Notes: generated by a model not told the origin, from the letters alone. DNA of 64,000 nucleotides from Bryobacterales bacterium (GCA_028819575.1 JAPPLB010000147.1:251-64250); one strand, 5' to 3'. Counted from the stretch's first letter, positions 2,003 to 56,442 are shown. Program-made: numbers and translations.

Positions 2003-2057
2003 GAGTTCCTCTTATGTCTCGATAGCCTCCGTCCGGCGGGGGTGGTGCGCCCAGCCA

Positions 2058-2765: not shown

Positions 2766-2766
2766 C

Positions 2767-4894: not shown

Positions 4895-6142
<1,248 letters not shown>

Positions 6143-6474
6143 CAGCCCGCGGAGAAAGTACCATGGAAGGCGTGGCGGTCTGATGAAGCCACTCGACGCA
6201 AGAACGCTGCGCATTGTTCTTCAACCGCCAAGCAACCTCTTCGGCCCCGGAGAGGATAACGCTGCCTGCGTGACTTGCACTACGGGCTTGCTGACTTACG
6301 AAGAACGAAGTCGGAAGTCCTTGCGCTTCAGTTCTCCGTAGGTAAATGACCAAATCTCATTGGATGTCTTCCGATCGTCTGGATGGTACCGGACGAAGAC
6401 CACCCGGGGGATCTCAGTGGAGGATGGACCGCGGGCTCTCCACTGGTCAGGATTCCCGATTGCTGTAATCTTGG

Positions 6475-6855: not shown

Positions 6856-6872
6856 AAACGTGGTTCCGCAGG

Positions 6873-7772
6873 CTAGGAAGCGAAGTGGTAGATCCCTGCA
6901 GCCGTCTTGCCGAGAATCCACTTCTTATCCTCGGAAGTGAAGAAGGGAATGATGTCTTTCATGACCACTAGCTCGTAGAAATTGGCGTAGAGCATCCGCT
7001 GCGGTCCGAAGCGGTCGTAGACCCTCCTCAAGTACGGCCACATATCGCGGTAGGGGATCTCCTCTTTCGAGGGATTGTGCAACGACGTCCGGATGTAGAC
7101 GTTCGGGAACTTCTCGAGGTCAAGAATCTGGTCGATGCCCTCATCGTCCGGCCGCCTGATGTCGATCATGGCGAAATGGTCAATGACGATTTTGACGCCG
7201 GGGAAGCGCTCGGCCATGTCCGCAACTTGCGAAATCTGATGAGGCGCCAGGAAGATATTGAACATCGCGCCGAGTTCCTCGGCTTTCTTCCATAGCGGAT
7301 AAACCGCCGGATCGTTCATCCAGACAACGTCCCGGTCATAGATCGGACTGAGCCGGAGCCCGGAAAAGCCCTGCTCCTTGACGAGGCGTTCGAGCCTGGC
7401 GGGGTTCTCGGGATCACCGGGGGCGTGCAGGCGGTAGCCGACAAGCAGGCCGATCGCGGCGAATCGGTCCGGGTGTTGTTTGAGCATGTATGCGGGATAG
7501 GAATTGTCCGTCCCGTAGTAGCACACGTGACTGATGACGACCTTGTCGATCTTGTAGAGCTGCATTTGGGAGAGGATGTGCTCCATCGAATACTCGCGGT
7601 CGGGCCGATTGTTCGGGCAGTTCGAGAGCCTCGAGTTGATCGGAAAGCGCTCGTCATGCAGTACCCAGGCGTGCTCGGCTGCGTTGATGATCGGGTCGAC
7701 CTCTTTAGCGGCGGCGTCTGAAGCCGCGAGTGCTCCGGCTGTGCTGAGTGCAAGGTATTCACGACGGGTCAT
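6873..7772 (-). CDS. Amidohydrolase-2 family protein with Tat-like signal
   Basis: N-terminus MTRREYLALSTAGALAASDAAA. Body resembles metal-dependent hydrolases of the amidohydrolase_2 type (VIDHFAM). Confidence 0.7.
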   Translation of the reverse strand: MTRREYLALSTAGALAASDAAAKEVDPIINAAEHAWVLHDERFPINSRLSNCPNNRPDREYSMEHILSQMQLYKIDKVVISHVCYYGTDNSYPAYMLKQHPDRFAAIGLLVGYRLHAPGDPENPARLERLVKEQGFSGLRLSPIYDRDVVWMNDPAVYPLWKKAEELGAMFNIFLAPHQISQVADMAERFPGVKIVIDHFAMIDIRRPDDEGIDQILDLEKFPNVYIRTSLHNPSKEEIPYRDMWPYLRRVYDRFGPQRMLYANFYELVVMKDIIPFFTSEDKKWILGKTAAGIYHFAS

Positions 7773-9849: not shown

Positions 9850-10155
9850 ATGCGATTCCTTGCCCAACACAAGACCGCAGCCGCCAGAGCTGCTGCTCTT
9901 GGCGTGCTGATCCTTCTGCATGCCGCTCCGTTGGCAGCGACGACACCCACCACCGGCCCCTGGGTCGATGCCGTGACCACGTTGCAGACGGCCTTCACCG
10001 GCACCATCGCACGCGGATTGAGCCTGGTTGCCATCGTCATCGGCGGCTTGATGTTCGCCTTTGGAGAAGGCGGCAGCAAGAGAGCTTTGGCCGGCATCAT
10101 CTTCGGCCTCGGCATGACGCTCGGCGCCGCCAACTTCATCGATTGGCTCTTCTGA
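9850..10155 (+). CDS. virB2: T4SS pilin, VirB2/TrbC-like
   Basis: Signal-like N-terminus plus two hydrophobic helices (GLSLVAIVIGGLMFAFGEG, AGIIFGLGMTLGAANFI). AGGAGG at 9839-9844 favours ATG 9850 over the GTG at 9844. Confidence 0.75.
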   Translation: MRFLAQHKTAAARAAALGVLILLHAAPLAATTPTTGPWVDAVTTLQTAFTGTIARGLSLVAIVIGGLMFAFGEGGSKRALAGIIFGLGMTLGAANFIDWLF

Positions 10156-10170
10156 GGCGGCTGGCTCTTC

Positions 10171-10494
10171 ATGTCGGCTGTCTACGGAAAGCGGTCCTGG
10201 CAAGCCTGCCGATCCCTGGCCCGCCCGCTCACAGTCATGGGCTGTGAGCGGAGGGCTTTCATTCTGGCGGCCATGTTCGGCGCCGTGACCTTCAACCTCC
10301 TCAACGCCTTTCTGCCTGGACTCCTGATCTTTCTGACCGGCTACATCATCGGCTGGCTGGGAACCCGCCACGATCCTCACATGATGCAGGTCGTCAAAGC
10401 TTCCGCGAGCGCCAAACCCCGCTACGATCCCGCGAAGCGGCCCGCGGCCGAGGCGGAGATCGAGATCGTCAGCAGCACCCTAACGACTGCATGA
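10171..10494 (+). CDS. virB3: T4SS VirB3/TrbD-like protein
   Basis: 107 aa with one hydrophobic hairpin. Sits between pilin and VirB4, with an ATGA overlap to VirB4. Confidence 0.7.
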   Translation: MSAVYGKRSWQACRSLARPLTVMGCERRAFILAAMFGAVTFNLLNAFLPGLLIFLTGYIIGWLGTRHDPHMMQVVKASASAKPRYDPAKRPAAEAEIEIVSSTLTTA

Positions 10495-12905
10495 CTCCCA
10501 TCACCCAATCCTCACGCAAGCGATACGAACAGGCCGGCTCGCTGGCCGAAGAGCTGCCCTATTGGGGCTGGGTGGACAAGCGTACCTTGCTCACCCGTCC
10601 CGGAGGACTGGTCACGCTGGCTGAGCTTCACCCCTGCGGCATCGCCGGCAGCTCGCCTGAAAACCTCGATCATGTCCTGGCTTCCTGGATGCGGCTGCTC
10701 GGTCAGCTCGATGAAGACGTGCGCTTCTCGCTGATCGTCACCCGCAGGCCGGTTCGCTCCGATGCGGTCGCCGCGATCGGCAACGATCGCCTGCCGCCTG
10801 CCATCTTCGAATCCCGGGCGGATGAGATCGTGCGGCGCTCCGGAGAGCTGCGCTTCTACGCCGCCTGGACGCTCGACTCGCGGCTGCAGGAAGCACGGCC
10901 CAAAGGCGGAGTCGCCGCGTCTTGGCTGAAGCGGCTCACCAGCAACGGCAAGGCCCAGCGGCTCTATGTGCAGAAATCCATCGCCCGCGCGTCGGAACGG
11001 CTGCAACGCATCGTCGATGCCGGCCGTGGACTGGTCACGGACGTATCCCCGAGCACGGTGCTCGAAGAAAAGGAAGCCACCGCCGTGCTCGGCGACATGA
11101 TCAACCGGCCGGGCACCGTTGCGCCGGTTCACGAAGGCGGAGCACTACATTGGTCCTGGGGACTCTCTCAGCTCGAAGGACACCGCCGCCACCTGACTCT
11201 CGACGACGAGCCCCTCGCCATCTACTCGCTGCTCGAACCGCCGCCGAAGGCGACCGCCAACATCCTGTGGGAGCTGCTCACCCTTCGGGCCACCTGGACC
11301 TTCGTTTGGGAATGGCAAGGCTTGTCGATCGGCAAGGCGCGGGGAATCATCCGCTCCGCGCAGAAGCACTTCTTTTCCTCGCGCTACTCGATGATGGCGC
11401 ACGCCAGAGGAACCGAAGGAACCGAAGCAGCGTTGGTCGATTCGGCAGCAGCGGCGGAATCGGCCGCGCTGGGCGATGCGCTCGTCGAGCTTCAGTCCGA
11501 GGGCATCCCCTGGGGCAAGCTGGCGGCTTCTCTCTCGATTCATGCCCCCGACCTGCAGCAGCTCGAAGAACTCGATTCCTCCGTCGTCAAGATCTTCACC
11601 GGCCGCGACATCAAGATCCTGCGCGAAGGCTACGGGCAACTCTCCACCTGGTTCGCCCGTCTGCCCGGGCAAGCAGCCAGCCGGCAATTGCGCCGGATGC
11701 CCGTCTCGGCCGGAACCGCGCTGTGCTGCTCCGCGATCTTCGCGCCCGGTCGAGGCGAACCGGAGTCGGACCACTTGGAAGCGCCGGCGCTGGCAACGCT
11801 CGAAACCCGTTGCGGAACCCTCTACGACTACGACCTTTTCGCCGGTTCCGACGTAGGCCACTCCCTCGTTCTCGGCAGCACCGGAGCCGGTAAGAGCTTC
11901 CTGCTCAACTTCCTTCTGGTTCACGCTCTGCGCTACAACCCGCGCGTCTCGATCCTCGACCTCGGCGGGAGCTACCGCAACCTCACGGCCATGCTCGGCG
12001 GAAGCTACCTGCGCCTCGACGGCGCCGGAGGCGGTACGCCCTTGCGGCCGTTCACTCTTCCCGAAGGTGAGCGAACCTACGAGTTTCTCACCGGCTGGAT
12101 CACCCAACTGCTCGCGCTGGGAGGCTACACGACCACCGGAGACGACACCACCGATATTCGCCGCCGCATCGAAGACGTGTACGGGATCGCAGCCAGCCAG
12201 CGCCGCATGAGCTCTCTGGTCGAGACGCTGGCGCCACGCATGAAGGACGCCATGAATCGCTGGAGAGGCAACGGTCAGTGGGGAAAGGTCTTCGACCAGC
12301 CCGGCCAGGGCAACGAGATCAATGGTAACGACTGGCAGGTTGTCGATCTGGCCGGAGCAAAGCAGTTTCCCGATCTGGTGTCCGCCGCCCTGACCTATTG
12401 CCTGGAGCGCTTGAGACTGGAGCTCGAGCGCCCCGAAGAAACCACCCGGCTCAAGATTCTCGTTGTCGATGAGGCATGGCGCTTCCTCGCTGAACCCGCG
12501 ACGGCGAACTACCTCGCCGAAGCCGCGCGGACCTGGCGCAAGCGCAACGCCGCCCTGATCCTGGCAACGCAGTCCGTCACCGACGTTGCCGGCGGAACCT
12601 CCACCGGCGCACTGATCGAGTCGATTCCCAACCGACTGTTCCTATCGATCCGCGACCTTACCTACGAAGCCGCCGCAAAGCTGCAATTGTCGGAAGCCGA
12701 AACATCACTCATCCAGAACCTGATCCCCAAGCGCGAAGTCTATGCCCGCAATCCTAACAGCCGCGAAGTGCTCACTCTCAACGTGGACCGGCGCAGCTAC
12801 TGGATGTTCACTTCCAACCCCATCGAGGAAGAGAAGCGATCCGCCGCGATCAAGCGAACGGGAGATCTCCAACAAGCCATCGAGGAGCTGGCGAGAGAAA
12901 GCTGA
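10491..12905 (+). CDS. virB4: T4SS ATPase VirB4/TrbE
   Basis: 804 aa with Walker A LGSTGAGKSF and Walker B ILVVDEAW. Size and position are typical of VirB4. Confidence 0.9.
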   Translation: MTPITQSSRKRYEQAGSLAEELPYWGWVDKRTLLTRPGGLVTLAELHPCGIAGSSPENLDHVLASWMRLLGQLDEDVRFSLIVTRRPVRSDAVAAIGNDRLPPAIFESRADEIVRRSGELRFYAAWTLDSRLQEARPKGGVAASWLKRLTSNGKAQRLYVQKSIARASERLQRIVDAGRGLVTDVSPSTVLEEKEATAVLGDMINRPGTVAPVHEGGALHWSWGLSQLEGHRRHLTLDDEPLAIYSLLEPPPKATANILWELLTLRATWTFVWEWQGLSIGKARGIIRSAQKHFFSSRYSMMAHARGTEGTEAALVDSAAAAESAALGDALVELQSEGIPWGKLAASLSIHAPDLQQLEELDSSVVKIFTGRDIKILREGYGQLSTWFARLPGQAASRQLRRMPVSAGTALCCSAIFAPGRGEPESDHLEAPALATLETRCGTLYDYDLFAGSDVGHSLVLGSTGAGKSFLLNFLLVHALRYNPRVSILDLGGSYRNLTAMLGGSYLRLDGAGGGTPLRPFTLPEGERTYEFLTGWITQLLALGGYTTTGDDTTDIRRRIEDVYGIAASQRRMSSLVETLAPRMKDAMNRWRGNGQWGKVFDQPGQGNEINGNDWQVVDLAGAKQFPDLVSAALTYCLERLRLELERPEETTRLKILVVDEAWRFLAEPATANYLAEAARTWRKRNAALILATQSVTDVAGGTSTGALIESIPNRLFLSIRDLTYEAAAKLQLSEAETSLIQNLIPKREVYARNPNSREVLTLNVDRRSYWMFTSNPIEEEKRSAAIKRTGDLQQAIEELARES

Positions 12906-12909
12906 AGAC

Positions 12910-13224
12910 ATGCCCTGGCGGATCGCAACCGGACTGAGCCTGATCATTTGGGTGATCGCCATCCTTCTCGTTGGCGAGCGGCTCAAGTACTTGGAGCCCT
13001 ATGCCAAGCTGCTCTTCGCTCACTACACCTGGAACGTCAGCCTCTACCTGATGATCGCCGCCGTGACCCTCTACGCCTTCATCTACTGGCTCGCCCGGCG
13101 CGCAGGCCTGGGCGATCTGGGCGGCAAGCTCAAGCTCATGGACAAGCGGCTCGTTGCCGGCGAATCCCACGACGACGAGCTCGCGCGGCGGCTGCAGCGC
13201 GAGCGCATGGGAGAGCTCGAATGA
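12910..13224 (+). CDS. Small 2-TM membrane protein
   Basis: Internal ATG at 12910 just after the virB4 stop. Two hydrophobic helices followed by a charged tail. Confidence 0.5.
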   Translation: MPWRIATGLSLIIWVIAILLVGERLKYLEPYAKLLFAHYTWNVSLYLMIAAVTLYAFIYWLARRAGLGDLGGKLKLMDKRLVAGESHDDELARRLQRERMGELE

Positions 13225-13484
13225 GCGTTCGATCCTGCCGCGTCTGCAGCTGTACGGATTTCGACGCCTGCATCGAACCGGACGGGTTTCCCTGTTGCTG
13301 GGTCGAGGACGACCTTTGCTCGGCTTGCGCCTTTTTTGCGCAAGGCGACAGGGTGGTTTTGCTCGAAGAAGCTGAGGACTTCAGCGGAAAGGAGGTCACT
13401 TTACCGGCCTCGACACGAATCATGGGACCGTACTCGCTCCAAGAACGCGAGGATCCATCGGACACAACAACTGGTGCTTCCTGA
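13221..13484 (+). CDS. Small Cys-rich protein
   Basis: ATGA overlap with the previous ORF. N-terminus MSVRSCRVCSCTDFDACIEPDGFPCCWVEDDLCSAC carries 9 Cys in 35 aa. Confidence 0.45.
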   Translation: MSVRSCRVCSCTDFDACIEPDGFPCCWVEDDLCSACAFFAQGDRVVLLEEAEDFSGKEVTLPASTRIMGPYSLQEREDPSDTTTGAS

Positions 13485-13533
13485 ACCTCGACATGCGGGA
13501 ACAACACATTGCCGGGGGAAAGGAGAGTGATTC

Positions 13534-14511
13534 TTGCGAGGCCGTGAAGTAGAAGCGCGCAGCGGGGCACGCTCGGGTCGAGCGGGCCCCGTCCGCTTCA
13601 AGCCCGTCCCCCACAGTCTCGGCTCGCAAGACGACCGCAGCCAGACTCCCAGCAAACCAAACACCCGACAGCGTCCCGCGCGCTCTCGACGTTCCAGCAA
13701 CCGCGCTCCGCGCCAGCGGCCTTCCCGCCGCAATCGCTCTGCTGACCGCATCGACTTCAAGCAGCGCAAGCGCCAGGCGCTCGACGACGTAGCGACCTAC
13801 CGCGTCGTCAGCGTGCGCGATCTGGTCGAGCGGCGCTTCGGAGGCAACGCCTTCGCCGCCCGCAAGGGCATCGACGCCCTCAAGAACGAGGGATTGCTCC
13901 ATGAGCACACCGTTCGCGTGAAAAGCGGCAAGACCTTCCGCGTCCTGTTCGCTTCACAGAAAGGCCGGCGCCAGGCATGGTGCAGCCGCAAGAACGACGA
14001 TCAGCGCTATTGGTGCGGCTTGGCGAAGCCTTCGGAAATCCGCCACGACGCCACCGTCTACCGCGCTGCCCACAGCGAGATCGCAAAGCTGGAGAAAGCC
14101 GGCTCTTCCGTCAAGCGCATCCAGCTCGACTACGAAATGAAATCCCGCGTGTCGAAGATTGCCGAGAGGGCGCGAGCGAAAGACGGCGGCGAATCCGCCT
14201 TCCTCGCCAAGATCGAGGCCGCCAAGCAGATGAACCTGCCCACCGGCAGCGACGGGAAAGTTCACTACCCCGACGCCCGCATCGAGTACGAGGACGAGCA
14301 GGGCAACCCCGGACGTGTCGATGTCGAAGTCACCAGCGGCAACTACCGCAGCAAGGGCCTGCAAGCCAAACTCTCAGCCGGCTTCAAGCTCTACGCCAAC
14401 GGCAATGCCGCCAAACAGCGCATTGCCTCTGCCTTGGGGATCAGAGAGCCCAAGAGAGGCGGCGGAAGCAAAAGCGGTGCGAGCCGCGATGAGGAGCTGT
14501 TCGAGTTATGA
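13534..14511 (+). CDS. Hypothetical; possibly replication-relaxation family (winged helix + PD-(D/E)xK-like core)
   Basis: TTG start with GGAAAGGAG 8 nt upstream. Basic N-terminal tail, a wHTH-like segment, and YPDARIEYEDEQGNPGRVDVEVTSG resembling a PD..E.. nuclease core. Family call is from memory only. Confidence 0.4.
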   Translation: MRGREVEARSGARSGRAGPVRFKPVPHSLGSQDDRSQTPSKPNTRQRPARSRRSSNRAPRQRPSRRNRSADRIDFKQRKRQALDDVATYRVVSVRDLVERRFGGNAFAARKGIDALKNEGLLHEHTVRVKSGKTFRVLFASQKGRRQAWCSRKNDDQRYWCGLAKPSEIRHDATVYRAAHSEIAKLEKAGSSVKRIQLDYEMKSRVSKIAERARAKDGGESAFLAKIEAAKQMNLPTGSDGKVHYPDARIEYEDEQGNPGRVDVEVTSGNYRSKGLQAKLSAGFKLYANGNAAKQRIASALGIREPKRGGGSKSGASRDEELFEL

Positions 14512-15488
14512 AGTTCCCCCACCTCAACGGGCGCGCCGGCAAGCTGGCAGATTCGCTGGATCTGCCAGCTAATCTTGCGGAATGGCTCGCCGTTTCTGCG
14601 CTTCATTCCGGCTGCTTTCTCCGCTCTCAGCTTCAGTTCTACGGCGGGTACGACGAAGAAAGCCGCAGATCACTCACCCGCGTTATTCGGAAATTATTGG
14701 AAAAGAATCTCATCACCGAAACCCCTGTCGAATCGCTTGGACTGCTCGCCCGCGTCACCAACAAATCCATCTACCGCCTTATTGGTGCGGACAACATCCG
14801 CCACCGGCGCCTTGCAAGCTGGCCCCTGATGTTCCGGCGCTTGCTCGCTCTCGACTACGTTCTCGACCACCCTCAGCTCCCCTGGCTGCCCACGGAAAAC
14901 GAGAAAGTCGCCTGCTTCGATCGGCTTGGAATCAACCATGCCAACCTGCCGCGCCGGGTTTGGAACAACGCCACCGGATACACGGTGCGGCTCTTCGCGA
15001 ACAAGCACCCGATCGCCGTCGATCCCCGCGGCAAGCAAGCCCACTTCGTCTACACCGATTCGGAAGAGAAATCGCCGCAGGGGGTTCGGAGCTGGCGAAC
15101 CGAACACGCGGCGCTGTGGTCCGATCTTCACCGCCTCGGCTTTGACCTTCACATCGTTCACGCCAGCTTCAACCCTCGGCTCGAAGAGAGCGTGAGCCGA
15201 GTGTTCTCAAGCTGGATGAATCAACCTCATTCGACCGTCACCCGTGCCGAGATCGAAGCCGAGATCGCGCTCGTCCAACAGGCCATCCAGTCCGATGACG
15301 AATCCGCCCTGAGGGTCTACGGCGGTTTCAACGGCGCGCTGCATGCTTCCGCCGCTCTCAAGGACCGGCTCGAGGAGCAAACCTCCACCGGTGCCTACAC
15401 CGCCACCTATTCCACCTGGCTCTCCCAACGGATCGCACAGGCCGTCCGCAACCCCAACCCTTCCGGCTCGCACACCCCAAATGCCTAA
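14508..15488 (+). CDS. Hypothetical; possibly replication-relaxation family paralog
   Basis: ATGA overlap with the previous gene. N-terminal wHTH-like segment (CFLRSQLQFY...RVIRKLLEKNLI). Low-confidence family call. Confidence 0.35.
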   Translation: MKFPHLNGRAGKLADSLDLPANLAEWLAVSALHSGCFLRSQLQFYGGYDEESRRSLTRVIRKLLEKNLITETPVESLGLLARVTNKSIYRLIGADNIRHRRLASWPLMFRRLLALDYVLDHPQLPWLPTENEKVACFDRLGINHANLPRRVWNNATGYTVRLFANKHPIAVDPRGKQAHFVYTDSEEKSPQGVRSWRTEHAALWSDLHRLGFDLHIVHASFNPRLEESVSRVFSSWMNQPHSTVTRAEIEAEIALVQQAIQSDDESALRVYGGFNGALHASAALKDRLEEQTSTGAYTATYSTWLSQRIAQAVRNPNPSGSHTPNA

Positions 15489-16164
15489 CCACGAAAGGCT
15501 TTCCCTGATTCAGATGACACTTTCGAGACTGAAACCATCCTCCGCATACCCCGCAGCTTTCGCGGCTTTCTCCCTTCTCTTCGCGCCGGCGCTCGCCGCT
15601 CAGAACAGCGGCCGCGGCTTCATCAAGGCTCAGGCCGGTTCGACACTTTTCAGCGGTGAATCGAACCTCACCGCCAGCGGCGGCTTCGGCGTCCGGATCA
15701 CCGGCTACCTCGACCTGTTTGCCGAGGCAGGCACGTTGCAGGACGTTCGAACCCATGAGCTGCAAAGCAATCTCGCTGCCCTTTCCACTCTCGCTGCCGA
15801 AGAGTTCAGCGTGCCTCTCGATCTGAACAGGCCCATCACCTGCCAGTACGGTTTCTTCGGCTCTCGCATCACGATACCGATGAGAAGCGTGATCACTCCG
15901 TTTTTCGAAATCGGCGGCGGAGCCGGCCGTCTCGATGTCCAATCGCCCGGCTTCATCCCCAGCTTCGTCCTCACCTATTTGGTGGATCGACAAATCAACC
16001 GCTACAAGAAGACCCATCCGCTGCTCGCGACAGGTGGAGGCGTCCATCTTGCCGTCACGCGAAGGTTCGGCATCGACATCGGCTATCGCTTCCTGCGAGT
16101 CTTCACCTCCAAACCCGCCATCATCGCGAACCAGGTCCACGCCGGCATCGTCTACCGCTTCTGA
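15481..16164 (+). CDS. Outer-membrane beta-barrel protein (OmpW/OmpA-beta-like)
   Basis: Signal peptide ending PALAAQN, alternating-hydrophobic strands, and C-terminal AGIVYRF ending in Phe. The start may instead be ATG 15514. Confidence 0.6.
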   Translation: MPNHERLSLIQMTLSRLKPSSAYPAAFAAFSLLFAPALAAQNSGRGFIKAQAGSTLFSGESNLTASGGFGVRITGYLDLFAEAGTLQDVRTHELQSNLAALSTLAAEEFSVPLDLNRPITCQYGFFGSRITIPMRSVITPFFEIGGGAGRLDVQSPGFIPSFVLTYLVDRQINRYKKTHPLLATGGGVHLAVTRRFGIDIGYRFLRVFTSKPAIIANQVHAGIVYRF

Positions 16165-16172
16165 GGCCCGCC

Positions 16173-17000
16173 ATGAAACCTGCCGACTTCATTGACGACA
16201 TGTATCGTCCCGACGACCTGGTTGCCCTGGTGCTGGTGTCCCGAGACGAAGAGACGAAAACCCAGCAGAGGATCTGGAACGCCAAGAAGGCCGCTTCGAA
16301 GGAGGTTCTGAAGTGGCTGAAGTACTCCAATTCGCACGGCTACGACATCTACATCGGCATGAACCCCTTGCAGCCCGGATCGCGCACCCGCAATAAGGAG
16401 GACGTTCAGGAAGTCCGCCGCGTCTACCTCGACCTCGACGAGGACGGCCCGTCGAAGCTCAAGGAGGTTCTCCAGGATGGCTTCAGCGGCAGGCTGCCTT
16501 CCGCCTCCTACATCATCAATACCTCTCCGGACCGCTACCAGTTGATCTGGAACGTCAAGCCCGGTTCCTTCACGCCCAGCGAGGCCGAATCTCTGATGCG
16601 CGGCCTCGCCGCCCGCTACGGCGGCGACCGCGCCGTGACCGACGTTTCGCGCGTCCTGCGGTTGCCCGGCTTCAAGCATCGCGGCAAGAACACCTGGATC
16701 ACGATGAGCGCCACGTCGGCGAAGCTCAGCAGCAAACAGGATTGGCCGGCTACCCTCTTCGTGGAGCCGGAGCGAACGGCAAGCGTCAGGCGCAAAAGCT
16801 CTTCCCCACACCGCTCTGGTGGAGATACTTCCCCCTCGGGCCACGATTGGGGCTGGACCAAGGACCAGCTTCGCGACGGCGTTGCCCCCGAAGAGCTGGA
16901 AATCCAACTTGCGGCAGCGCGTCCCGACAAACGCGATCCCGCCGACTACGCCAAGCGCACGGTCGCCCGGGCGCGTGAATCACTTTCACTGGAGCGATGA
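16173..17000 (+). CDS. RepB-type DNA primase domain protein
   Basis: The pattern DDLVALVLV...HGYDIYIGMNPL...VRRVYLDLDEDG...RVLRLPGFKH is typical of RepB_primase / conjugative primase proteins as I recall them. Confidence 0.65.
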   Translation: MKPADFIDDMYRPDDLVALVLVSRDEETKTQQRIWNAKKAASKEVLKWLKYSNSHGYDIYIGMNPLQPGSRTRNKEDVQEVRRVYLDLDEDGPSKLKEVLQDGFSGRLPSASYIINTSPDRYQLIWNVKPGSFTPSEAESLMRGLAARYGGDRAVTDVSRVLRLPGFKHRGKNTWITMSATSAKLSSKQDWPATLFVEPERTASVRRKSSSPHRSGGDTSPSGHDWGWTKDQLRDGVAPEELEIQLAAARPDKRDPADYAKRTVARARESLSLER

Positions 17001-18418
17001 AACCTCGACTCTCGCCCTTCGTCCTGGGCTTCGTCCTGTTGGCGGAAGGCTGGGCCTCGCTCGGAACCGAGATCCTCGCCCTCCGCCGCTTGACGCCCTG
17101 GGCCGGTTCCACGGTCGACGTGACCTCGATACTGCTGGCCGTCTACCTCGCCGCGCTGGCCGGAGGCTACCGCCGTGGAGGCCTGCTGGCTCGTCTGGGC
17201 GATCCCCGCCCGCGCCTGGCGCGCCGCCTGGCCGCCGCCTCCCTGTGGTCGGCCTTCTGGCTGTCGGAACCCGGCGTGCTGCTGGCCTTCTCGCTGCCGG
17301 CCGCTCCGCTGTTGCAGACCTTCGCCTATGCGGTGGTAGGGATCGCGCCGGTCGGCTGGCTGCTCGCCGAATGCGTGCTGCTCGCTCACGCCTGCGCACC
17401 CCTTCGCGACGCTTCCGAGCGCGCCGGCGGTGTCTTCGCCTTGTCCACGGTCGGCAACGTCACCGGAGCACTGGCGGCGACCTTCCTGCTGCTGCCCACG
17501 CTGGGGCTCGCAGCGGCCGTTTTCTCCGTCATGGCCGCTTCCGCCGCGGCCGCGCTTCTGGTGTCGCACCGCAGCATTTCTGTCCACATGCTGCTCTTCG
17601 CCGCTTGCTGGCCGGCCCTCGATCTATGGATCGAGGCCACCCAATACGTCGCCCGCAACGCCTACGCCGACTACCGCATCGTCGCTATCGACGACGATGC
17701 CCGGGTTCTAGTCATCAACAACCAGTCGGCTTCGCGGCATGATCGGGAAGGCCGGGGTTGGGAGTACGCCGAGTTGTTGGAACGCACACTGTGCGGCGCC
17801 GGCGAACACCGCGTGCTCGTTCTTGGCGCTGCCGGCATGACCATCGGCCAGGGCGCGCCGTGCGAACTCGATCTCACCTTCGTTGACATCGATCCCGAGC
17901 AGGAGCAGATCGCCGCGCAGTTTCTCGGCGCCCCGGGAGATACAGCCGGAGAGTTCGCCGGCAGGGACGCCCGCTCCTACCTGCGCGACTCCGAATCCGG
18001 ATGGCAGGCGATCGTCGTCGATGCCTTCACCAATCCCCGCTCCCTGCCGCGGCATTTGCTCACCGCCGAGTTCTACCGCCTTGCGCGTTCCCGGCTCGCA
18101 GACGGCGGCTCTCTCTACGTCAACCACACCACCTACCCGGGCGAAGAGCTCTTCATCACGAGAGCCGAGCGAACCTTGCGAAGCGTTTTCTCCGCGTGCA
18201 CCGTTCGCGCCGCTCAGCTTCCCCCGTCAACCGACTGGCACGAGGAAGCATCCTTCGACCGCAATCTTCTCTTCCGCTGCACGAGGAGCCCCCTCGACGG
18301 CGACCGCGTGATCTACTCCGACAGCGTTTCCAGAGCCGACCTGGACCGCTCTCTTCGATTGCCAAAAAATCGAGGTCATCGAACAATGTTCATGAAAGGA
18401 GACAGCACCCATGAGTAG
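16997..18418 (+). CDS. Fused polytopic membrane / spermidine-synthase-like (class I MTase fold) protein
   Basis: About 220 aa with 6-7 TM helices. Then VLVLGAAGMTIGQG, FVDIDPEQ, IVVDAF and LADGGSLYVN, which resemble aminopropyltransferase motifs. Confidence 0.6.
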   Translation: MKPRLSPFVLGFVLLAEGWASLGTEILALRRLTPWAGSTVDVTSILLAVYLAALAGGYRRGGLLARLGDPRPRLARRLAAASLWSAFWLSEPGVLLAFSLPAAPLLQTFAYAVVGIAPVGWLLAECVLLAHACAPLRDASERAGGVFALSTVGNVTGALAATFLLLPTLGLAAAVFSVMAASAAAALLVSHRSISVHMLLFAACWPALDLWIEATQYVARNAYADYRIVAIDDDARVLVINNQSASRHDREGRGWEYAELLERTLCGAGEHRVLVLGAAGMTIGQGAPCELDLTFVDIDPEQEQIAAQFLGAPGDTAGEFAGRDARSYLRDSESGWQAIVVDAFTNPRSLPRHLLTAEFYRLARSRLADGGSLYVNHTTYPGEELFITRAERTLRSVFSACTVRAAQLPPSTDWHEEASFDRNLLFRCTRSPLDGDRVIYSDSVSRADLDRSLRLPKNRGHRTMFMKGDSTHE

Positions 18419-18614
18419 ACGCTTGACCTATCAGAAGCGCATCGGACCGGACGGCCAACCCGTATCGGTCCCCGTCGTTCCCCCCGACGCCACGCCCGAA
18501 GAGATCGAGGCGATCGTGTCGGAAGAAGGCGCGGCCATCATGACCGACGAGCAGCAGGCCGCCTTCGACAAGTACGTCGGCGAGGGAGTCACTCGCGATG
18601 GCCGTGCACGTTGA
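18411..18614 (+). CDS. Small acidic hypothetical protein
   Basis: 67-aa ORF overlapping both neighbours by a few codons. No family recognised. Confidence 0.35.
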   Translation: MSRRLTYQKRIGPDGQPVSVPVVPPDATPEEIEAIVSEEGAAIMTDEQQAAFDKYVGEGVTRDGRAR

Positions 18615-20832
18615 CGACATAAACGAGCGCGACGAAAACGGTGCCGGCTACTTGCACCACGCCGCCATCAATGATGACGGTCCTGTGGTTCGGTGGTTGC
18701 TTCAGAATGGAGCCGATCCGAATCAGCCCGATCATGATGGCCGCCGGCCCTTGCATGAGGCCGCCGAATCCAAATCCATCGTATCTGTTGCTCTGTTGCT
18801 TGAAAACGGAGCAAGCCCGCACGTTCACGAAAAGCACCTTGAACAAACACCCTTGCATCGAGCAGCCCTGTTCGGCTCATCCGAAGTATCTGAACGCTTG
18901 ATCGAAGCCGGCGCGGACCCCAACGCACGTGATTCGAACGGCGATACCCCGCTTCACCTGGCCCTCAGCGACCTCACCAACGAGAAGTCGCAGCTACCCG
19001 TGATCAATCGTTTGCTTGAAGGCGGAGCCGACCCCGACTTGGCCGACAGACAGTTAGGTCGAACGCCGCTGAACCTTGCCGCCGTCTACGGCAAACTCGA
19101 AACTGCCGATCGCTTGCTCGAAGCAGGGGCACACACCCATTGTCCCGACAAGGACGGCTATAGCGCCTTGCACGTAGCTTCGCGGTGCTCGGCGGCACTG
19201 ACAGAACGCTTGCTGAAGGCCGGCGCAAGCCCGCACACCCACTCCCATAGCGGCCGCACACCGCTCCACGAAGCAGCCTCATTCAGCTCGACAAGGAGCG
19301 TCGAGCGATTGCTCGAAGCAGGAGCCGACCCCAACAGCCGTGATAGGCACGGACAAACCCCCCTGCACTTGGCCGCTTCGGCCCAATCAACCGAGACGGT
19401 CGAGCGCCTGATCGAAGCCGGTGCGGACCCCAATGCGAAAAACGAGATCGGCTGGACCCCGCTGCATTCGGCGGCCGTTGCCAACGATATGCAGACCATC
19501 GACCACTTGCTCAAAGCCGGCGCCGACATGAGAGCCCACAAACCCGGAGATGTCGGAACACCTTTGGAGCTCGCCAAGACGTACAAATCGGCCGAAGCCG
19601 TAGGCCATCTCGCCCGCGCCGAAACCGTCCGTGACTCGGCCGAGCAATCGCCTTCCTACAACCGCTACCGCCGCACGGAAAACACACCCTCTAACGAACG
19701 CGGAGAGACCGTGCCGCAGAACGGCAAGGAACTCTCCCAACAGTCGAACACTCAACACCAAAACCACCACAAGGAGAACCCCATGCCGCAAGAACACTGG
19801 AGCAAAAGCAAAAGCGCACGGCAATTCACCGAACAGGTTGCCGAGCGCGTCGCCAAGCAGGTCGAGCAGGGCAAGGCCCCCTGGCAGAAAGGATGGGACA
19901 AGCCCAAAGGTGCAGACTTGCAGCCCTTCAATCCTGCAACCTTGAAGCGCTTCAAGGGACTCAACTCCGTCCAGCTTCGTTCCGTTGCCGAGGAGAAAGG
20001 CTACAACGATCCGCGCTGGATGAGCTTCCAGGCCGCCAACCAGATCGGAGCGAAAATCCGCAAGGGCGAGCGCGGCACCCGCGTCGAATACCTGCGCTTC
20101 CCGCCCAAGTCGGCGGACAAGGATGCGCCTGGCGTCGGCGCCGACGGCAAGTTGAAGGAACCGCCCAAAATCTCCCACCACACCTACACCGTGTTCAACG
20201 CCGAGCAGATCGAGAAGATGCCGCCGCTGGATCAGCAGTTACCCAAGGATCCCCAGCAGCACGAGATCTGCGAACGCGCCGAGCGCATGATCCAGGACTC
20301 CGGCGTGAAGTTGGAGAATCCGCCCAACGGGCAGAACTTCGCCAACTACGACAAGGATCGAGACACCATCGTGATCCCCGATATCGAGAAGTTCAAGTCG
20401 CCCGAAGCCTACTACGGCCAGGCCGTGAAGGAAATGACGAACCAGGCCGGCCACAAAGCTCAACAGGACCGCTCCGAACCGCAGAACGAAGCCCAGCAGC
20501 ATACTGCAGCCGCTCGCCAGGACATGCGCAGCGAAATGGCCTGCCTGACCATTAACGAGAAACTGCATCTTCCCAAGGAGCCCACCGGCGAGCGCCACCA
20601 GAAGCAATGGGCGGAAACCATCCGGAAGAACCCCAACGAACTGCGCTACGCCGCCAGGGACGCCGACCAGATCGCCGACCAGGTGCTCCAGCACGACCGG
20701 CCGCAGCAACGCCAGCAGTCCGAGCCCAGCCGCGAGGCCTCTACTGCTCAGGTCACTCCCGAGCGGGTGCAGGAAACCCAACGCGCCCTGCAACAGCCGC
20801 AACGCGAAATGGCCGCCGCCATGAGTCGCTAG
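18598..20832 (+). CDS. Ankyrin-repeat / ArdC-like fusion protein with degenerate metallopeptidase motif
   Basis: About 10 ankyrin repeats (G-TPLH-A...LLEAGADPN) in aa 1-330. An ArdC N-domain (APWQKGW...FNPATLKRFKGLNSVQL...RWMSFQAANQIGAKIRKGERG) follows. KEMTNQAGH stands where the paralog has HELGHWTGH. Confidence 0.8.
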   Translation: MAVHVDDINERDENGAGYLHHAAINDDGPVVRWLLQNGADPNQPDHDGRRPLHEAAESKSIVSVALLLENGASPHVHEKHLEQTPLHRAALFGSSEVSERLIEAGADPNARDSNGDTPLHLALSDLTNEKSQLPVINRLLEGGADPDLADRQLGRTPLNLAAVYGKLETADRLLEAGAHTHCPDKDGYSALHVASRCSAALTERLLKAGASPHTHSHSGRTPLHEAASFSSTRSVERLLEAGADPNSRDRHGQTPLHLAASAQSTETVERLIEAGADPNAKNEIGWTPLHSAAVANDMQTIDHLLKAGADMRAHKPGDVGTPLELAKTYKSAEAVGHLARAETVRDSAEQSPSYNRYRRTENTPSNERGETVPQNGKELSQQSNTQHQNHHKENPMPQEHWSKSKSARQFTEQVAERVAKQVEQGKAPWQKGWDKPKGADLQPFNPATLKRFKGLNSVQLRSVAEEKGYNDPRWMSFQAANQIGAKIRKGERGTRVEYLRFPPKSADKDAPGVGADGKLKEPPKISHHTYTVFNAEQIEKMPPLDQQLPKDPQQHEICERAERMIQDSGVKLENPPNGQNFANYDKDRDTIVIPDIEKFKSPEAYYGQAVKEMTNQAGHKAQQDRSEPQNEAQQHTAAARQDMRSEMACLTINEKLHLPKEPTGERHQKQWAETIRKNPNELRYAARDADQIADQVLQHDRPQQRQQSEPSREASTAQVTPERVQETQRALQQPQREMAAAMSR

Positions 20833-20956
20833 TTCTCATTCGAGGTTCCTCATGCCGTACAAGACGGGCCTTTCTCCCTGCAGCAGCAGTGTGGACGGCC
20901 TTCCCTAGCGCCGCCTCATGGACTGGAGCCGTTAGACCTGCCCGAAGGCTGATTCG

Positions 20957-21997
20957 ATGACGAAATGGAAGAAGGGCAGTAGCGCCCGTCAGTTCGCGGA
21001 GAAGGCTGCGGAGAAGATGATCGAGCAGCTCAAGAAGGGTGTCGCTCCCTGGCAGAAGGAATGGGATAAGCCCGAGGGCTCGGAGCTTCCCCCATTCAAC
21101 CCCGTCACCGGAACCCGCTACCGCGGCCTCAACTCATTCGTGCTGGCTTCGGAAGCCGGCGAGCGTGGATATGCAGATCCGCGATGGACCACCTATCGCG
21201 GCGCGAAGAAGGTCGGAGCGCAAGTCCGCAGGGGCGAGAAGGGAGTCGGAGTCGAGTACTGGAAGTTCCCCACCAAGGAGCAGGAGGACAGGGTACGCGC
21301 CGCGATCGCTGCCGGCCAGCAGCCCGAAGAACTCAAGATCATCCACCGCACTTACACGGTGTTCAACGCCGAGCAGATCGAAGGGATGCCTTCTCTCGAA
21401 AGCGAGCTCAAGAAGGTGAACCAGTGGGAAACCTGCGAACGCGCCGAAGCCTTGCTGCAGGCGTCGGGCGCGAACATCGAACACCGTGGCGGCAACCGAG
21501 CTTTCTACCGTCCCTCACAGGACTTGATCGTGCTGCCGAAGCAGGAGCAGTTCCACTCGCCCGAAGCCTACTACTCGACGGCGCTTCACGAGCTCGGCCA
21601 CTGGACCGGACACAAGAGCCGGCTCGATCGCTCGGAACTGATGAAGGGCAGCTTCGGTTCTCCGGAGTACGCCAAGGAAGAACTGCGGGCGGAAATGACT
21701 TCCGTGACCGTCAATGGGATGCTGCGGCTGCCGCACGATCCGAACAGCCATGCATCCTATGTCGGTTCCTGGATCAAGACTCTTGAGGACAACCCCAACG
21801 AGCTGCGCTACGCAGCCCGCGACGCCGGCAAAATGTCGGATTACATCCTTCAGTTCGACCGTTACCAGGAGCGCCAGGCCGAAGAAAAGCCCCGCGAAGC
21901 GGGCCTTTCCTCATCGGTTTACCGGCAACAGCCTGATCTCAGCCAGCGACCGCAGCCGCAACCGGGGAAAGAGCCGGTTTCAGCACTGGATCGCTGA
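20957..21997 (+). CDS. ardC: Antirestriction protein ArdC (ssDNA-binding N-domain + zincin peptidase)
   Basis: APWQKEW, FNPVTGTRYRGLNSFVL, RWTTYRGAKKVGAQVRRGEKG, and an intact HELGHWTGH. Confidence 0.85.
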   Translation: MTKWKKGSSARQFAEKAAEKMIEQLKKGVAPWQKEWDKPEGSELPPFNPVTGTRYRGLNSFVLASEAGERGYADPRWTTYRGAKKVGAQVRRGEKGVGVEYWKFPTKEQEDRVRAAIAAGQQPEELKIIHRTYTVFNAEQIEGMPSLESELKKVNQWETCERAEALLQASGANIEHRGGNRAFYRPSQDLIVLPKQEQFHSPEAYYSTALHELGHWTGHKSRLDRSELMKGSFGSPEYAKEELRAEMTSVTVNGMLRLPHDPNSHASYVGSWIKTLEDNPNELRYAARDAGKMSDYILQFDRYQERQAEEKPREAGLSSSVYRQQPDLSQRPQPQPGKEPVSALDR

Positions 21998-22006
21998 TTT
22001 CAAGGT

Positions 22007-22048
22007 GCCCCGTTAAAAAACCTTAACGGGGCATCCTAACGGGGCATA
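22007..22048 (+). terminator. 10-bp hairpin after ardC plus direct 11-mer repeat
   Basis: GCCCCGTTAA (22007-22016) pairs with TTAACGGGGC (22023-22032). TAACGGGGCAT is repeated again at 22036-22046. No T-tract, so it may be a protein site rather than a terminator. Confidence 0.35.
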
Positions 22049-22099
22049 TTCCACTTTTCGCAACTTGCAGTTTCTCAAGCAGTTAAGCAATTCTGCTCA

Positions 22100-22213
22100 C
22101 CCCGCCTGTGCCATGCGAGGCGGGGTTCGTGTGCGTGTAGCGACCCCCCCTTTTTGCCACTTCGTATGGCACGGCCTCTGCCCTACGGGCCGAGGTTCGG
22201 GGGGTCGCTACAC
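22100..22213. promoter_or_regulatory. Candidate oriT core: nested inverted repeats
   Basis: A 7-bp hairpin CCCCGCC/GGCGGGG (22100-22125). Then a perfect 15-bp IR GTGTAGCGACCCCCC (22135-22149) / GGGGGGTCGCTACAC (22199-22213) enclosing two small hairpins. Lies between the ArdC genes and the coupling-protein gene. Confidence 0.35.
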
Positions 22214-22250
22214 GCTTGATCGATCCCTGCGGGAAGGCCGGAAGCGCTTT

Positions 22251-22460
22251 GCGCTGAAAATCCGCCGCTTGAAAAGCTTTCTCGCTCGCTGCGCTGAATC
22301 CCTGTTGACGCCCCGCTGAACGAAACTCCATCACGTTCGCTTTTCAGCGTTTTTCAGTTTTTCGACTCGATAGGATTCAGTACCCACCTCCTCGAATCCC
22401 ACTGAATACGCCTGTTGTCACTCGGATTCAGTTCGTTTCTTGGCAGCTTACGCCGTTCAG
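22251..22460. repeat. Cluster of about 9 CTGAA/TTCAG short repeats
   Basis: GCGCTGAA at 22251 and 22291, and CGCTGAA at 22314. TTCAG at 22343, 22353, 22376, 22427 and 22456. CTGAAT at 22402. All lie in 210 nt of non-coding DNA upstream of virD4. Confidence 0.5.
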
Positions 22461-22612: not shown

Positions 22613-24682
22613 ATGCTTTGCCGATTCGCCTTCGCTTGGCATCCTGTATGCATGAAGTTCGCGCTTCCCTGGATCGCCGGTTTCCTTCTCTCGCTCTCCC
22701 GCTGGCGCTGGGAGCCCTTCCCCGCTTCCGGTGCGAACCCGTTCCTCGATCTTATCGAGCTGAACGATCCCGCTCTCTTCCATCTCATCGTGGGCTGGTA
22801 CTATCTCGCGCCCTGGGCCGCCGCCGGAGTCGGCGGAGCGCTGCTTCTCTCGATGTGGCAAATCTGGTTCGCCGGCCTCGGCAACGGCAGCGGCGGCCGT
22901 GGTTCGCTGCCGCGCTGGCCGTCATCCTCGAATGACAAGTCGATCTCTCTCGTCGTGGGGGAAACCCACCACCCCACCAGGCCGGTCGAGTCGGAACAAC
23001 CCGACTGGCTGGTGCTCTCCGAAAAAGGACTCTTTACCGGCGTTGCCGTAGTCGGAGCCGTGGGGACCGGCAAGACCTCCGCCTGCATGCAACCCTTCGC
23101 CGAGCAGCTCTTCTCGTGGCAGTCCCATGACTCCCACAAGAAAGCGGCCGGCCTCGTGCTCGAAGTCAAAGGCGACTTCTGCTACGCCATCCGCGACGTG
23201 CTGGACAAGCACGGCCGCGGCGACGACTACCTTGAAATCGGCCTCAACAGTCACTGGCAGTGGAACCCCCTCGATGCGCACTGGATGGATTCCTACTCGC
23301 TGGCGTACACCATCGCCTCGCTGATGAACCAACTCTTCGGCCGCGGCAAGGAGCCCTTCTGGCAGCAGGCATCCACCAATCTCGTTCGCAACATCATCGA
23401 ACTCTACCGCGTCACCACCGGCTGGGTGACTCTTCAAGATGTGTACAACTGCGCGATCGATCCCGAGCTGCTCGGCAACAAGATCGAAAAAGCCTACAGC
23501 GAAGCCGCTCCACCCCCTCCGCCCGAGGCTCGCATCTTCGTTCCGCAGTGGGCGTTCACCGCTCACGGCCGTAAGCTCAAGGATTGGGAATGGAAGGACG
23601 AGCCCGACAAGGAGAAGTCGGCTGTTGTTGACGCCGATCTTGTCGCCACTCTTACGAAGCTCAGCATCGACCATCGCACCGTCGAGCCGCCCGCTGCGAA
23701 CACCGCCGGCAAGTCACCCCGTCTGGAGCGAATCGAGGCTGTGAAGCGCTGGTATCACCTCGACTGGATGAAGATCGATCTGAAGCTGCGAACCTCCATC
23801 GTCGAAGGAATCTCCGTTTTCCTGGGACTTTTCGATACCCCCGAAGTTGCCCGCATGTTCTGCCCGCCTGAACCCGAGCGCGAGCCGGAAACCATGTCAC
23901 CTGCGAACGGAGCTGCGGCCGGGGCAACGCAGATCGCCACCTTGCGGCCTCTTCCCTCGCTCAGCTCGCTCATCGAGGAAGGCAAGGTGATCTGCCTCAA
24001 CATGCCCGTTTCATCCAACGCCGCCCTCGCTCGCGCGATCGGCGTGATGCTCAAGCAAAGCTGGCTGGGCGCGCTGCTGCTGCGTCCGGCCGACATGCGC
24101 AAGCTGCCCACGAAGTACTTCCGGCCGGCCGTCTTCCTGTGCGACGAATACCAGTCGTTCGCCACCGTAGGCGAGGCCGATCCCAGCGGAGACGAGAAAG
24201 CCTTCGGCCTCAGCCGGCAGTCGCGCTGCATCCCGATCGTCGCCACGCAGTCGATTTCCTCGCTGCGCTCCGTCACCGGCAGCGGCGAAGCCTGGCGCAC
24301 CCTGTTTCAGAACCTCAGAACGAAGGTCTTCCTCTCTCTCAGCGACGATTCCTCCGCCCGCATCGCTTCGGAAATGTGCGGCCAGGTCGAAGTGCTCAAG
24401 ACCGCCTACTCCTTCAACGAGTCCACGCCGAAGGCCGGCATCTCGCTCTTCAGCGGGGCGCCCGGAGGCGGCAAGTCCTCGCTGGGAGTCTCCAAGTCCT
24501 TCCAGGACCGCATGGAACCGCTTTTCCGGCCAAAGGCATTTGCCGAGCTCGATACCGGCCAGGCCATCGTGCTGCCCTACGACGGTAAGAAGAACCTGTC
24601 CGCCCGCCGCTGCTACCTCAAGCCGTTCTACCTGCCACGTGATCTCAGCTACTGGCGCCAGCAAGAGAAAGGAATGATATGA
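22613..24682 (+). CDS. virD4: Type IV coupling protein (VirD4/TraG-like)
   Basis: N-terminal TM helices, Walker A VVGAVGTGKTS and Walker B VFLCDEYQSF. The start may be ATG 22652 (MKFALPW). Confidence 0.85.
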   Translation: MLCRFAFAWHPVCMKFALPWIAGFLLSLSRWRWEPFPASGANPFLDLIELNDPALFHLIVGWYYLAPWAAAGVGGALLLSMWQIWFAGLGNGSGGRGSLPRWPSSSNDKSISLVVGETHHPTRPVESEQPDWLVLSEKGLFTGVAVVGAVGTGKTSACMQPFAEQLFSWQSHDSHKKAAGLVLEVKGDFCYAIRDVLDKHGRGDDYLEIGLNSHWQWNPLDAHWMDSYSLAYTIASLMNQLFGRGKEPFWQQASTNLVRNIIELYRVTTGWVTLQDVYNCAIDPELLGNKIEKAYSEAAPPPPPEARIFVPQWAFTAHGRKLKDWEWKDEPDKEKSAVVDADLVATLTKLSIDHRTVEPPAANTAGKSPRLERIEAVKRWYHLDWMKIDLKLRTSIVEGISVFLGLFDTPEVARMFCPPEPEREPETMSPANGAAAGATQIATLRPLPSLSSLIEEGKVICLNMPVSSNAALARAIGVMLKQSWLGALLLRPADMRKLPTKYFRPAVFLCDEYQSFATVGEADPSGDEKAFGLSRQSRCIPIVATQSISSLRSVTGSGEAWRTLFQNLRTKVFLSLSDDSSARIASEMCGQVEVLKTAYSFNESTPKAGISLFSGAPGGGKSSLGVSKSFQDRMEPLFRPKAFAELDTGQAIVLPYDGKKNLSARRCYLKPFYLPRDLSYWRQQEKGMI

Positions 24683-56439: not shown

Positions 56440-56442
56440 GAT

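Follow-up and report, generated by a model that had tools for sequence, protein, structure and literature searches.

A conjugative element of a Bryobacterales bacterium (Acidobacteriota) carries two neighbouring genes for ArdC-type proteins, one of which has become a pseudoenzyme fused to an array of ankyrin (Ank) repeats. The element lies in a stretch of 64,000 nucleotides (GCA_028819575.1 JAPPLB010000147.1:251-64250), and this whole stretch is what we call the window. The fused protein, of 744 aa, joins ten ankyrin repeats to an ArdC module whose metal site is dead, and the 346-aa ArdC beside it keeps an intact site. The dead copy is an ancient, maintained pseudoenzyme and not a gene in decay, because about 49 protein clusters share the dead site, its peptidase-like domain has a ratio of nonsynonymous to synonymous substitution rates (dN/dS, or omega) of ~0.38, and its structural model superposes on R388 ArdC. 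The features that carry this finding are listed here, with positions counted from the first letter of the window.

18598-20832, plus strand: Ank-pseudoArdC fusion gene, 744 aa (open reading frame (ORF); Pfam Ank, ArdcN and MPTase-PolyVal)
18634-19632, plus strand: ten ankyrin repeats, aa 13-345 (hand dissection; AlphaFold2 (AF2) predicted local distance difference test (pLDDT) >90, ten helix-turn-helix pairs)
19633-19782, plus strand: disordered linker rich in Q/N/S/T/H, aa 346-395, about 50 residues (sequence; pLDDT ~30)
19822-20196, plus strand: ArdC-N domain of the fusion, aa 409-533 (PF08401, E 2e-26, model positions 2-123 of 123)
20272-20658, plus strand: zincin-like peptidase fold without a metal site, aa 559-687 (PF18818, E 1e-14, 54.8 bits against a cut-off of 27.5)
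20428-20454, plus strand: degenerate motif KEMTNQAGH, aa 611-619, in the place of HExxHxxxH
20957-21997, plus strand: canonical ArdC, 346 aa, with an intact metal site (Pfam ArdcN, E 3e-33, and MPTase, 147 bits; 6SNA, E 2e-45)
21587-21613, plus strand: intact motif HELGHWTGH of the live ArdC, aa 211-219 (alignment with the fusion and R388 ArdC)

A first-pass annotation of the window had described the fusion as about ten ankyrin repeats ahead of an ArdC-N domain and a zincin region. Ten repeats can indeed be delimited, and Pfam confirms this domain order, with the Ank families matching at E 1e-61. The protein is identical to the NCBI entry 'MAG: ankyrin repeat domain-containing protein [Bryobacterales bacterium]'. 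Its ArdC module aligns end to end with R388 ArdC (6SNA) by phmmer (E 4e-22), and its MPTase-PolyVal score is 54.8 bits versus 147 bits for the neighbouring 346-aa ArdC. PADLOC and NCBIfam hold no specific family for either ArdC gene. A full-length AF2 run on 16 sequences gave a confident Ank part and an ArdC module at pLDDT 30-60; the module was remodelled with an alignment of 44 sequences. This second model is confident (predicted template-modelling score 0.76), with the ArdC-N domain at pLDDT >90. Foldseek superposes it on 6I89/6SNA (E 3.5e-15, template-modelling (TM) score 0.80-0.82) and finds no other significant superposition. Structure prediction, which had been suggested along with the annotation, thus indicates that the fusion retains the ArdC fold of R388 ArdC.

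The tandem paralogy of the two genes is borne out by BLASTP of the two ArdC modules, which aligns them over 346 aa at 46% identity (E 2e-99). This formal alignment sets KEMTNQAGH exactly opposite HELGHWTGH, as the first-pass annotation had placed it. Against 6SNA, phmmer sets K611/E612/N615 of the fusion opposite H201/E202/H205. In R388 ArdC the metal is bound by H201, H205 and E229; E202 acts as general base, H205 is oriented by E228, and Y255 probably stabilises the substrate (PMC7213743). The fusion has K, N, D, E, Q and H at H201, H205, E229, E202, E228 and Y255, respectively, and the general-base Glu is the sole survivor of the set. Residue by residue, both His ligands are therefore lost from the fused copy and the neighbour's site is intact, in line with the earlier claim. 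The loss is wider than that claim had it, with E229 replaced by Asp, E228 by Gln and Y255 by His as well. The 346-aa ArdC retains all of the metal-site and active-site residues of R388 ArdC. Measured against the metal site of the ArdC family (HExxH plus Glu, with E228 and Y255), the fusion lacks the site and the neighbour has it in full.

To see the pair in context, related loci were collected in a scan that took one genome per species. It returned 11 dead-clade loci (L001-L011), all in Bryobacterales assemblies. The fusion of the window has no second HExxH, and the pattern HE..H is absent from the dead-clade fusion ORFs of L001-L011, so the idea that no functional site is hidden elsewhere in the protein holds for these ORFs. 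Since its MPTase domain has no metal ligands, autoproteolysis of the fusion in cis is not expected. The E229A mutant of R388 ArdC is fully active in conjugation (PMC7213743); ArdC function therefore does not depend on catalysis, and a dead site alone does not imply a changed function.

How the dead module evolves speaks for its maintenance. In a database search, loss at all ligand positions is common to the ~49 protein clusters, which are 37-74% identical overall, and the replacement residues are themselves conserved among them (K-E-M-x-x-R, R-x-[DE]-M-R-[RS]-E-M and G-E-R-H-K-x-Q-W). We took dN/dS as the median of pairwise Nei-Gojobori estimates over twelve syntenic genes. For the peptidase or peptidase-like domain it is 0.38 in the dead fusion (range 0.18-0.70, 55 pairs) versus 0.11 in the live neighbour; for ArdC-N it is 0.31 versus 0.15, and for the C-terminal tail 0.20 versus 0.59. 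The dead domain is thus relaxed about threefold relative to the live domain, yet clearly constrained. Its catalytic residues are gone, its fold is retained and it is under purifying selection, as in a pseudoenzyme.

The same rates could be attributed to a redundant paralog that is drifting to loss, in which case the dead motif would mean nothing. The dead module does evolve about three times faster (omega 0.38 vs 0.11), intermediate ArdC paralogs in relatives show independent active-site decay, and some copies of the fusion are broken by insertion sequences (IS) or frameshifts. Drift does not account for an ORF that is intact in the ~49 clusters across 37-74% identity, with omega well below 1 in every domain, nor for new residues conserved at the old active site, a confidently predicted fold and recruitment of the module by relaxases. 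The selection and conservation data have already largely refuted this explanation, which we hold to be highly improbable.

The live gene is equally constant in the related elements. The gene order in all 11 dead-clade loci runs VirB4, two unknown genes, an outer-membrane protein, a primase, a protein of major facilitator superfamily (MFS)/spermidine-synthase (SpdSyn) type and Ank-deadArdC, followed by zero to three ArdC paralogs, a terminal ArdC, the type IV coupling protein (T4CP) and VirB11. The terminal ArdC is in every case the last ArdC gene before T4CP and is 78-95% identical to that of the window. Its HELGHWTGH, Glu-Glu pair and Tyr are intact in 10/11 loci, that is, wherever they could be read; the copy of L011 was read out of frame and that of L009 is split by a frameshift. 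The intermediate paralogs mix intact motifs (HEMGH, HELSH) with independently degenerate ones (QELSS, QELCH, AELSK, YEMSR). They occupy these positions.

L001 11043-12203, L002 11063-12184 and L003 11055-14090: extra ArdC paralogs (1-3) between the dead fusion and the live ArdC; the window has none
L005 11057-13180 and L006/L007 11060-12175: extra ArdC paralogs of further loci, likewise without a counterpart in the window

The two genes that the first-pass annotation had paired are therefore tandem paralogs, as it said, but they do not form a fixed unit; the number of ArdC genes in the array varies from 2 to 5, and the pair is one of its states. A similar qualification applies to the coupling of ankyrin repeats with a dead motif, which is present in the window but is not specific. 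More distant sister elements (L012-L014) carry a single live Ank-ArdC in the same position and no separate ArdC, and live-site Ank-ArdC fusions with HExxH make up at least 17 clusters, one of them with the reverse domain order. Because these fusions are live, ankyrin fusion and inactivation are separable. No element seems to be without a live peptidase. In a neighbour-joining tree the dead fused modules group with the intermediate paralogs, and the solo live ArdC falls with the fused modules that are live, although the branches are long and the groupings only indicative. They do not fit a simple scenario of an ancestral live fusion followed by duplication. Separately, ArdC-like ORFs in Mucilaginibacter/Bacteroidota (L050, L054, L059, L071) gave no HE..H in a simple pattern search; they may be further independent inactive versions or have a variant motif.

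The dead module has also been joined to another kind of protein. Two clusters, P0056 and P0061, consist of a MobA/MobL relaxase fused to a dead ArdC module. A relaxase pilots the transferred strand (T-strand) into the recipient, and for this reason these fusions represent use of the dead module on a protein that travels with DNA. The P0061 unit of ~8.8 kb comprises the relaxase-deadArdC, RepA, an IS21 pair and a helix-turn-helix protein and has no live ArdC, so the dead module works without a live ArdC encoded in cis. On the ENA contig concerned (L076, with P0061 at 10001-12163) the unit is found three times. It is probably a small mobilisable plasmid riding the same type IV secretion system (T4SS).

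These gene arrangements bear on the possibility that the fusion is a substrate adaptor. Its Ank array would capture a recipient protein, and the dead domain would pair with the live ArdC or pass the protein on for cleavage, as in a two-component protease. Such an arrangement would agree with the presence of a live ArdC beside every dead fusion in a conjugative element and with the strong constraint on the live MPTase domain (omega 0.11). L012-L014 and ~17 clusters, in which Ank is joined covalently to a live peptidase with no separate ArdC, amount to a Rosetta-stone type of link. Against it stands the relaxase-deadArdC unit without a live ArdC, although a helper element could supply one. ArdC proteins are not known to oligomerise, and no protease substrate has been found for any ArdC; HhaI was not degraded by R388 ArdC, whose catalytic mutant was functional (PMC7213743). 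We consider an adaptor unlikely.

The ankyrin array appears to have a history different from that of the rest of the element. The closest relative, L001, is collinear with the window at ~93% DNA identity over 10525-18625 and again from 19763 onward, and it has one additional ArdC gene. The intervening segment, with breakpoints at about codon 10 and in the linker, is the following.

18626-19762, plus strand: exchangeable cassette made up of the Ank array and most of the linker (blastn vs L001: unalignable, with flanks 93-95% identical)

The L001 array is 79% identical to that of L011, though L011 comes from another genome and has a more distant backbone. Across the family, arrays range from ~4 to ~27 repeats, and Ank identity is decoupled from the identity of the ArdC module; P0010, for example, has 92% identity in the module and 46% in the array. 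The synonymous divergence of the array (dS) is often about twice that of the adjoining ArdC module, which suggests separate histories for array and module. Arrays that can be aligned are under purifying selection, with a whole-array omega of 0.30-0.44. Positions of the type used for binding in designed ankyrin repeat proteins (DARPins) are mildly more variable (omega 0.19-0.66 vs 0.20-0.35). Pointwise positive selection was considered as the diversifier and rejected, given the whole-array values and binding positions that never exceed 1. Diversification appears instead to proceed by recombination of functional cassettes. Five copies of dead-clade elements sit in one chromosome, with arrays that differ in length and sequence, and because they share that chromosome the elements are integrative.

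Purifying selection with no sites above omega 1 is also what a conserved partner would predict. The fusion could then be a recruiter that promotes establishment: the protein would coat the incoming strand, and the array would recruit a factor of the recipient or the element (replication, repair or the co-encoded primase) or would self-assemble on DNA. The gene shares a conserved block with that of a RepB-type primase and lies directly upstream of the coupling-protein gene, a location that would suit this. A conserved partner, however, does not explain the replacement of the array between 93%-identical elements and leaves five co-resident elements with differing arrays in one chromosome unexplained. 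A recruiter of this sort is, in our estimate, quite unlikely.

Two further features of the fusion lie at the end of the protein and at the start of its ArdC module.

20692-20829, plus strand: conserved C-terminal tail of the fusion (TPER...AMSR-COOH; dN/dS 0.20)
19771-19785, plus strand: Shine-Dalgarno-like AAGGAG-N6-ATG inside the fusion gene, where its ArdC module begins (the ATG encodes the invariant Met396)

The tail motif TPER, with a terminal [LM]SR or LDR-like end, is common to dead, live, solo and relaxase-fused members; in the live ArdC of the window, a tail similar to that of the fusion lies at 21860-21994. On the strength of this shared sequence, the tail is a candidate recognition signal for the T4SS.

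The internal AAGGAG occurs in 10/12 dead-clade fusion genes (the window and L001-L011), with AAGGAA in L004 and L010, and AAGGAG-N6-ATG is absent from the live fusion of L012. The Met396 start coincides with the 3' breakpoint of the cassette and corresponds in alignment to the initiating Met of solo ArdC. It is either what remains of a once separate gene start or a possible internal initiation site, which would give an Ank-less product. In fragmented copies of the fusion, gene callers place the start at Met396. Stand-alone, Ank-less dead ArdC genes (P0052, P0121, P0122 and others) were looked at as candidates and all proved to be fragments of fusions, produced by frameshifts in noisy contigs (L077, L079) or by an IS in the linker (L078). 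In the last of these a DDE transposase at 5409-6764 parts the Ank array from the dead ArdC, and the internal start is kept.

The reading that we favour, tentatively and at a little less than an even chance, is that the fusion helps a Bryobacterales integrative conjugative element, as an accessory, to become established or to counter defences, and that it acts as a DNA-tethered binder of a recipient protein. The ArdC-N domain would bind the transferred single strand, and the flexible linker would present the ten-repeat solenoid, which would block, sequester or recruit a recipient protein. The metal-free zincin-like domain would remain as a pseudo-peptidase with the structural role of completing the ArdC fold and, with the conserved tail, would probably let the T4SS or the coupling protein handle the fusion. 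Whatever proteolysis the system needs would be supplied by the neighbouring canonical ArdC, and specificity would be changed by swapping whole ankyrin cassettes, not by point mutation. Cassette exchange, purifying selection on the array, the obligatory live ArdC and the relaxase fusions all fit a binder or decoy aimed at a recipient protein, as the first-pass annotation had suggested. Prior work has shown that pSa ArdC and RP4 TraC1 are transferred as proteins (PMC5512222); together with the functional E229A mutant of R388 ArdC, this makes a role independent of catalysis credible. Binding of single-stranded DNA by the fusion, its transfer to the recipient, its binding of a recipient protein and an anti-defence outcome there are steps that we infer.

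Several points weigh against the binder. R388 ArdC is needed through its expression in the recipient and not in the donor (PMC7213743), so protein transfer is not a given. A secretion role for the tail is pure conjecture, the tail being a candidate signal at most. The Ank repeats could equally mediate self-assembly or recruit a helpful host factor. Positive selection was not detected on the array, with no omega >1 for the whole array or for the DARPin-type positions. Finally, neither a relaxase nor a nick site was identified in the window.

A bolder version of the binder would extend it to the whole family. Ank-pseudoArdCs would form a natural library of DNA-tethered binders, each injected by its element or expressed early and neutralising a particular recipient defence protein, with cassettes exchanged by recombination at fixed breakpoints to track host defences. 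The dead module and its tail would serve as a portable T4SS ticket, copied onto relaxases by small mobilisable plasmids, and the ArdC arrays, each with an obligatory live peptidase and several copies that are inactivated, would be a diversified anti-defence battery. We regard this version as possible, though on the doubtful side.

The element itself encodes RepA, VirB4, an outer-membrane protein, a RepB-type primase, a T4CP, VirB11, VirB9, VirB10, VirB6 and VirB8. The replication and T4SS/T4CP genes found in the window uphold its conjugative nature, which the first-pass annotation had implied. The genes that flank the ArdC pair are these.

16173-17000, plus strand: RepB-type primase (PF16793, E 2e-27), an upstream neighbour kept by synteny
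16997-18418, plus strand: fused MFS/spermidine-synthase-like membrane protein (NF037959, 88 bits vs a cut-off of 40)
22613-24682, plus strand: T4CP (PF12696 and PF10412), a downstream neighbour kept by synteny

The MFS/spermidine-synthase-like gene stands directly upstream of the fusion gene in every syntenic locus and is an unexpected constant member of the conjugation gene block. Housekeeping genes lie on the left of the element and a GTPase-associated conflict system on its right side. At the left boundary, ~7.8-8.4 kb, housekeeping genes at 746-7772 (2-oxoacid dehydrogenase E2, dihydrolipoamide dehydrogenase, amidohydrolase) abut the RepA/T4SS genes that start at 8397, and no tRNA gene or integrase was seen. 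The conflict system, at 52482-58853 on the minus strand, is complete: a GAP1-N1 protein (691 aa), DO-GTPase1, DO-GTPase2, GASH and a calcineurin-like phosphoesterase with a GAAD domain. Small genes of mobile-element type lie at 34927-35652, 36819-37328, 38605-39420, 47489-48936 and 61106-62059 and encode DUF5131, a SocA/Panacea antitoxin domain, DUF3560, two adjoining DUF29 and an NYN-domain protein.

A spacer of 615 bp precedes the T4CP gene and contains a candidate origin of transfer (oriT).

22006-22430 (core 22095-22235), no strand assigned: conserved non-coding region, candidate oriT, between the live ArdC and T4CP

The region has 72-90% DNA identity in all syntenic loci. In the candidate oriT, ~140 bp downstream of the live ArdC, a perfect 17-bp inverted repeat (22133-22149 / 22199-22215) encloses a three-way junction, and the fold of the single-stranded DNA (ssDNA) has a z of -7.4 versus shuffles. 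Compensatory changes occur in the outer seven stem pairs across the 12 loci. Directly after the inverted repeat, at 22219-22235, comes an invariant ATCGATCCCTGCGGGAA, and a separate hairpin, TGCCCCGTTAA(6)TTAACGGGGCA, stands right behind the ArdC stop at 22006-22033. Rfam, run on the whole window, gave no family, and none for the candidate oriT. We take the inverted repeat and ATCGATCCCTGCGGGAA to resemble a nick region of IncP-like type (YATCCTG|Y), and these sequence features make 22006-22430 a candidate oriT. If the plus strand is nicked in the manner of IncP plasmids, both ArdC genes would be the last to enter and would not lie in a leading region, where the first-pass annotation had put the fusion. 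No relaxase turned up in the window, either with Pfam on ~45 ORFs or in a tblastn search that used the MobA/MobL part of P0056/P0061.

Most relatives (L002, L004-L011, and L003 at 15617-16630) have an insert of ~1 kb between the candidate oriT and T4CP, which is not in the window or L001. It encodes a PP-loop protein of 337 aa that contains FSGGRTSAY and for which PADLOC gives a match to SspD of the Ssp phosphorothioation system (E 1.6e-13). The gene is possibly cargo for DNA modification or anti-restriction.

The presence of ankyrin repeats next to a T4SS also brings to mind an effector against a eukaryotic host, like the Dot/Icm ankyrin proteins of Legionella and Coxiella. The Ank region does give sub-threshold matches to the Legionella Ank models of NCBIfam, but the best of them (AnkY/AnkH/AnkG...) scores 119.9 bits against a cut-off of 600, which reflects generic repeats only. 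Moreover, the T4SS sits in a replicating, self-transmissible element with RepA, a primase and a coupling protein, the fusion partner is an ssDNA-binding antirestriction scaffold, and the hosts are free-living soil Acidobacteriota. Such an effector is scarcely credible. What the fusion has in common with these effectors and with DARPins is a stack of 33-residue repeats as a protein-binding surface and, in the case of the Legionella/Coxiella effectors, the association with a T4SS. It differs from the effectors in that there is no orthology, the presumed target is bacterial and the array is fused to an ssDNA-binding scaffold.

Of known systems, the ArdC of IncW R388/pSa (6I89, 6SNA; PF08401 and PF18818) has the same two-domain module and, like the ArdC genes of the window, belongs to a conjugative element. 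The 346-aa neighbour fits this family in every respect. The fusion, by contrast, is without both His ligands, the Glu ligand, E228 and Y255, adds ~395 N-terminal residues (ten Ank repeats and the linker) and a conserved C-terminal tail of 45 aa, and is always accompanied by further ArdC paralogs.

The fusion also falls within the definition of polyvalent proteins, which are encoded by phages or conjugative elements, hold at least two unrelated domains in a single chain, typically grouped around MPTase/ArdC-N hubs, and are predicted to act early in the recipient (Iyer et al. 2017, PMC5512222). Here the domains are the Ank array, ArdC-N and the MPTase-like domain. In polyvalent proteins ArdC-N is preferentially N-terminal, and an active MPTase has been proposed to free the domains by autoproteolysis (PMC5512222). 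The fusion has neither property: its ArdC-N is internal (aa 409-533, behind the Ank array) and its MPTase-like domain is inactive. Its added module is a non-catalytic ankyrin solenoid, and this variable part is exchanged as a cassette. P0056 and P0061 resemble the primase- or relaxase-linked ArdC-N/MPTase proteins such as RP4 TraC1, where an ArdC-type module is joined to a DNA-transfer enzyme that enters the recipient. The partner in the window's fusion is a binding array and not an enzyme, and the primase has a gene of its own upstream.

Published work already refers, in a general way, to inactive peptidase domains alongside ArdC-N (PMC6222260). The word 'ankyrin' is absent from the main text of the polyvalent-protein survey (PMC5512222), and the literature searched contained no link of ankyrin repeats to ArdC or to leading-region anti-defence. 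New here are an ankyrin cassette that is exchanged between elements, a pairing of pseudo-ArdC and live ArdC that is conserved within variable arrays, and the relaxase fusions.

ArdC is widespread on conjugative plasmids, and the role of its peptidase domain has been open since the R388 structure, as the catalytic mutant works and no substrate is known. The family described here naturally splits the functions, with a catalysis-free copy that carries an exchangeable binding array and, alongside it, a copy with a constrained catalytic site. Through the ankyrin arrays, the recipient proteins with which ArdC-type systems interact become directly accessible to experiment. To our knowledge, conjugation in Acidobacteriota is almost unstudied, and anti-defence biology would be extended to this phylum. 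If the binder reading is true, cassette exchange would be a new route by which conjugative elements retune their anti-defence specificity.

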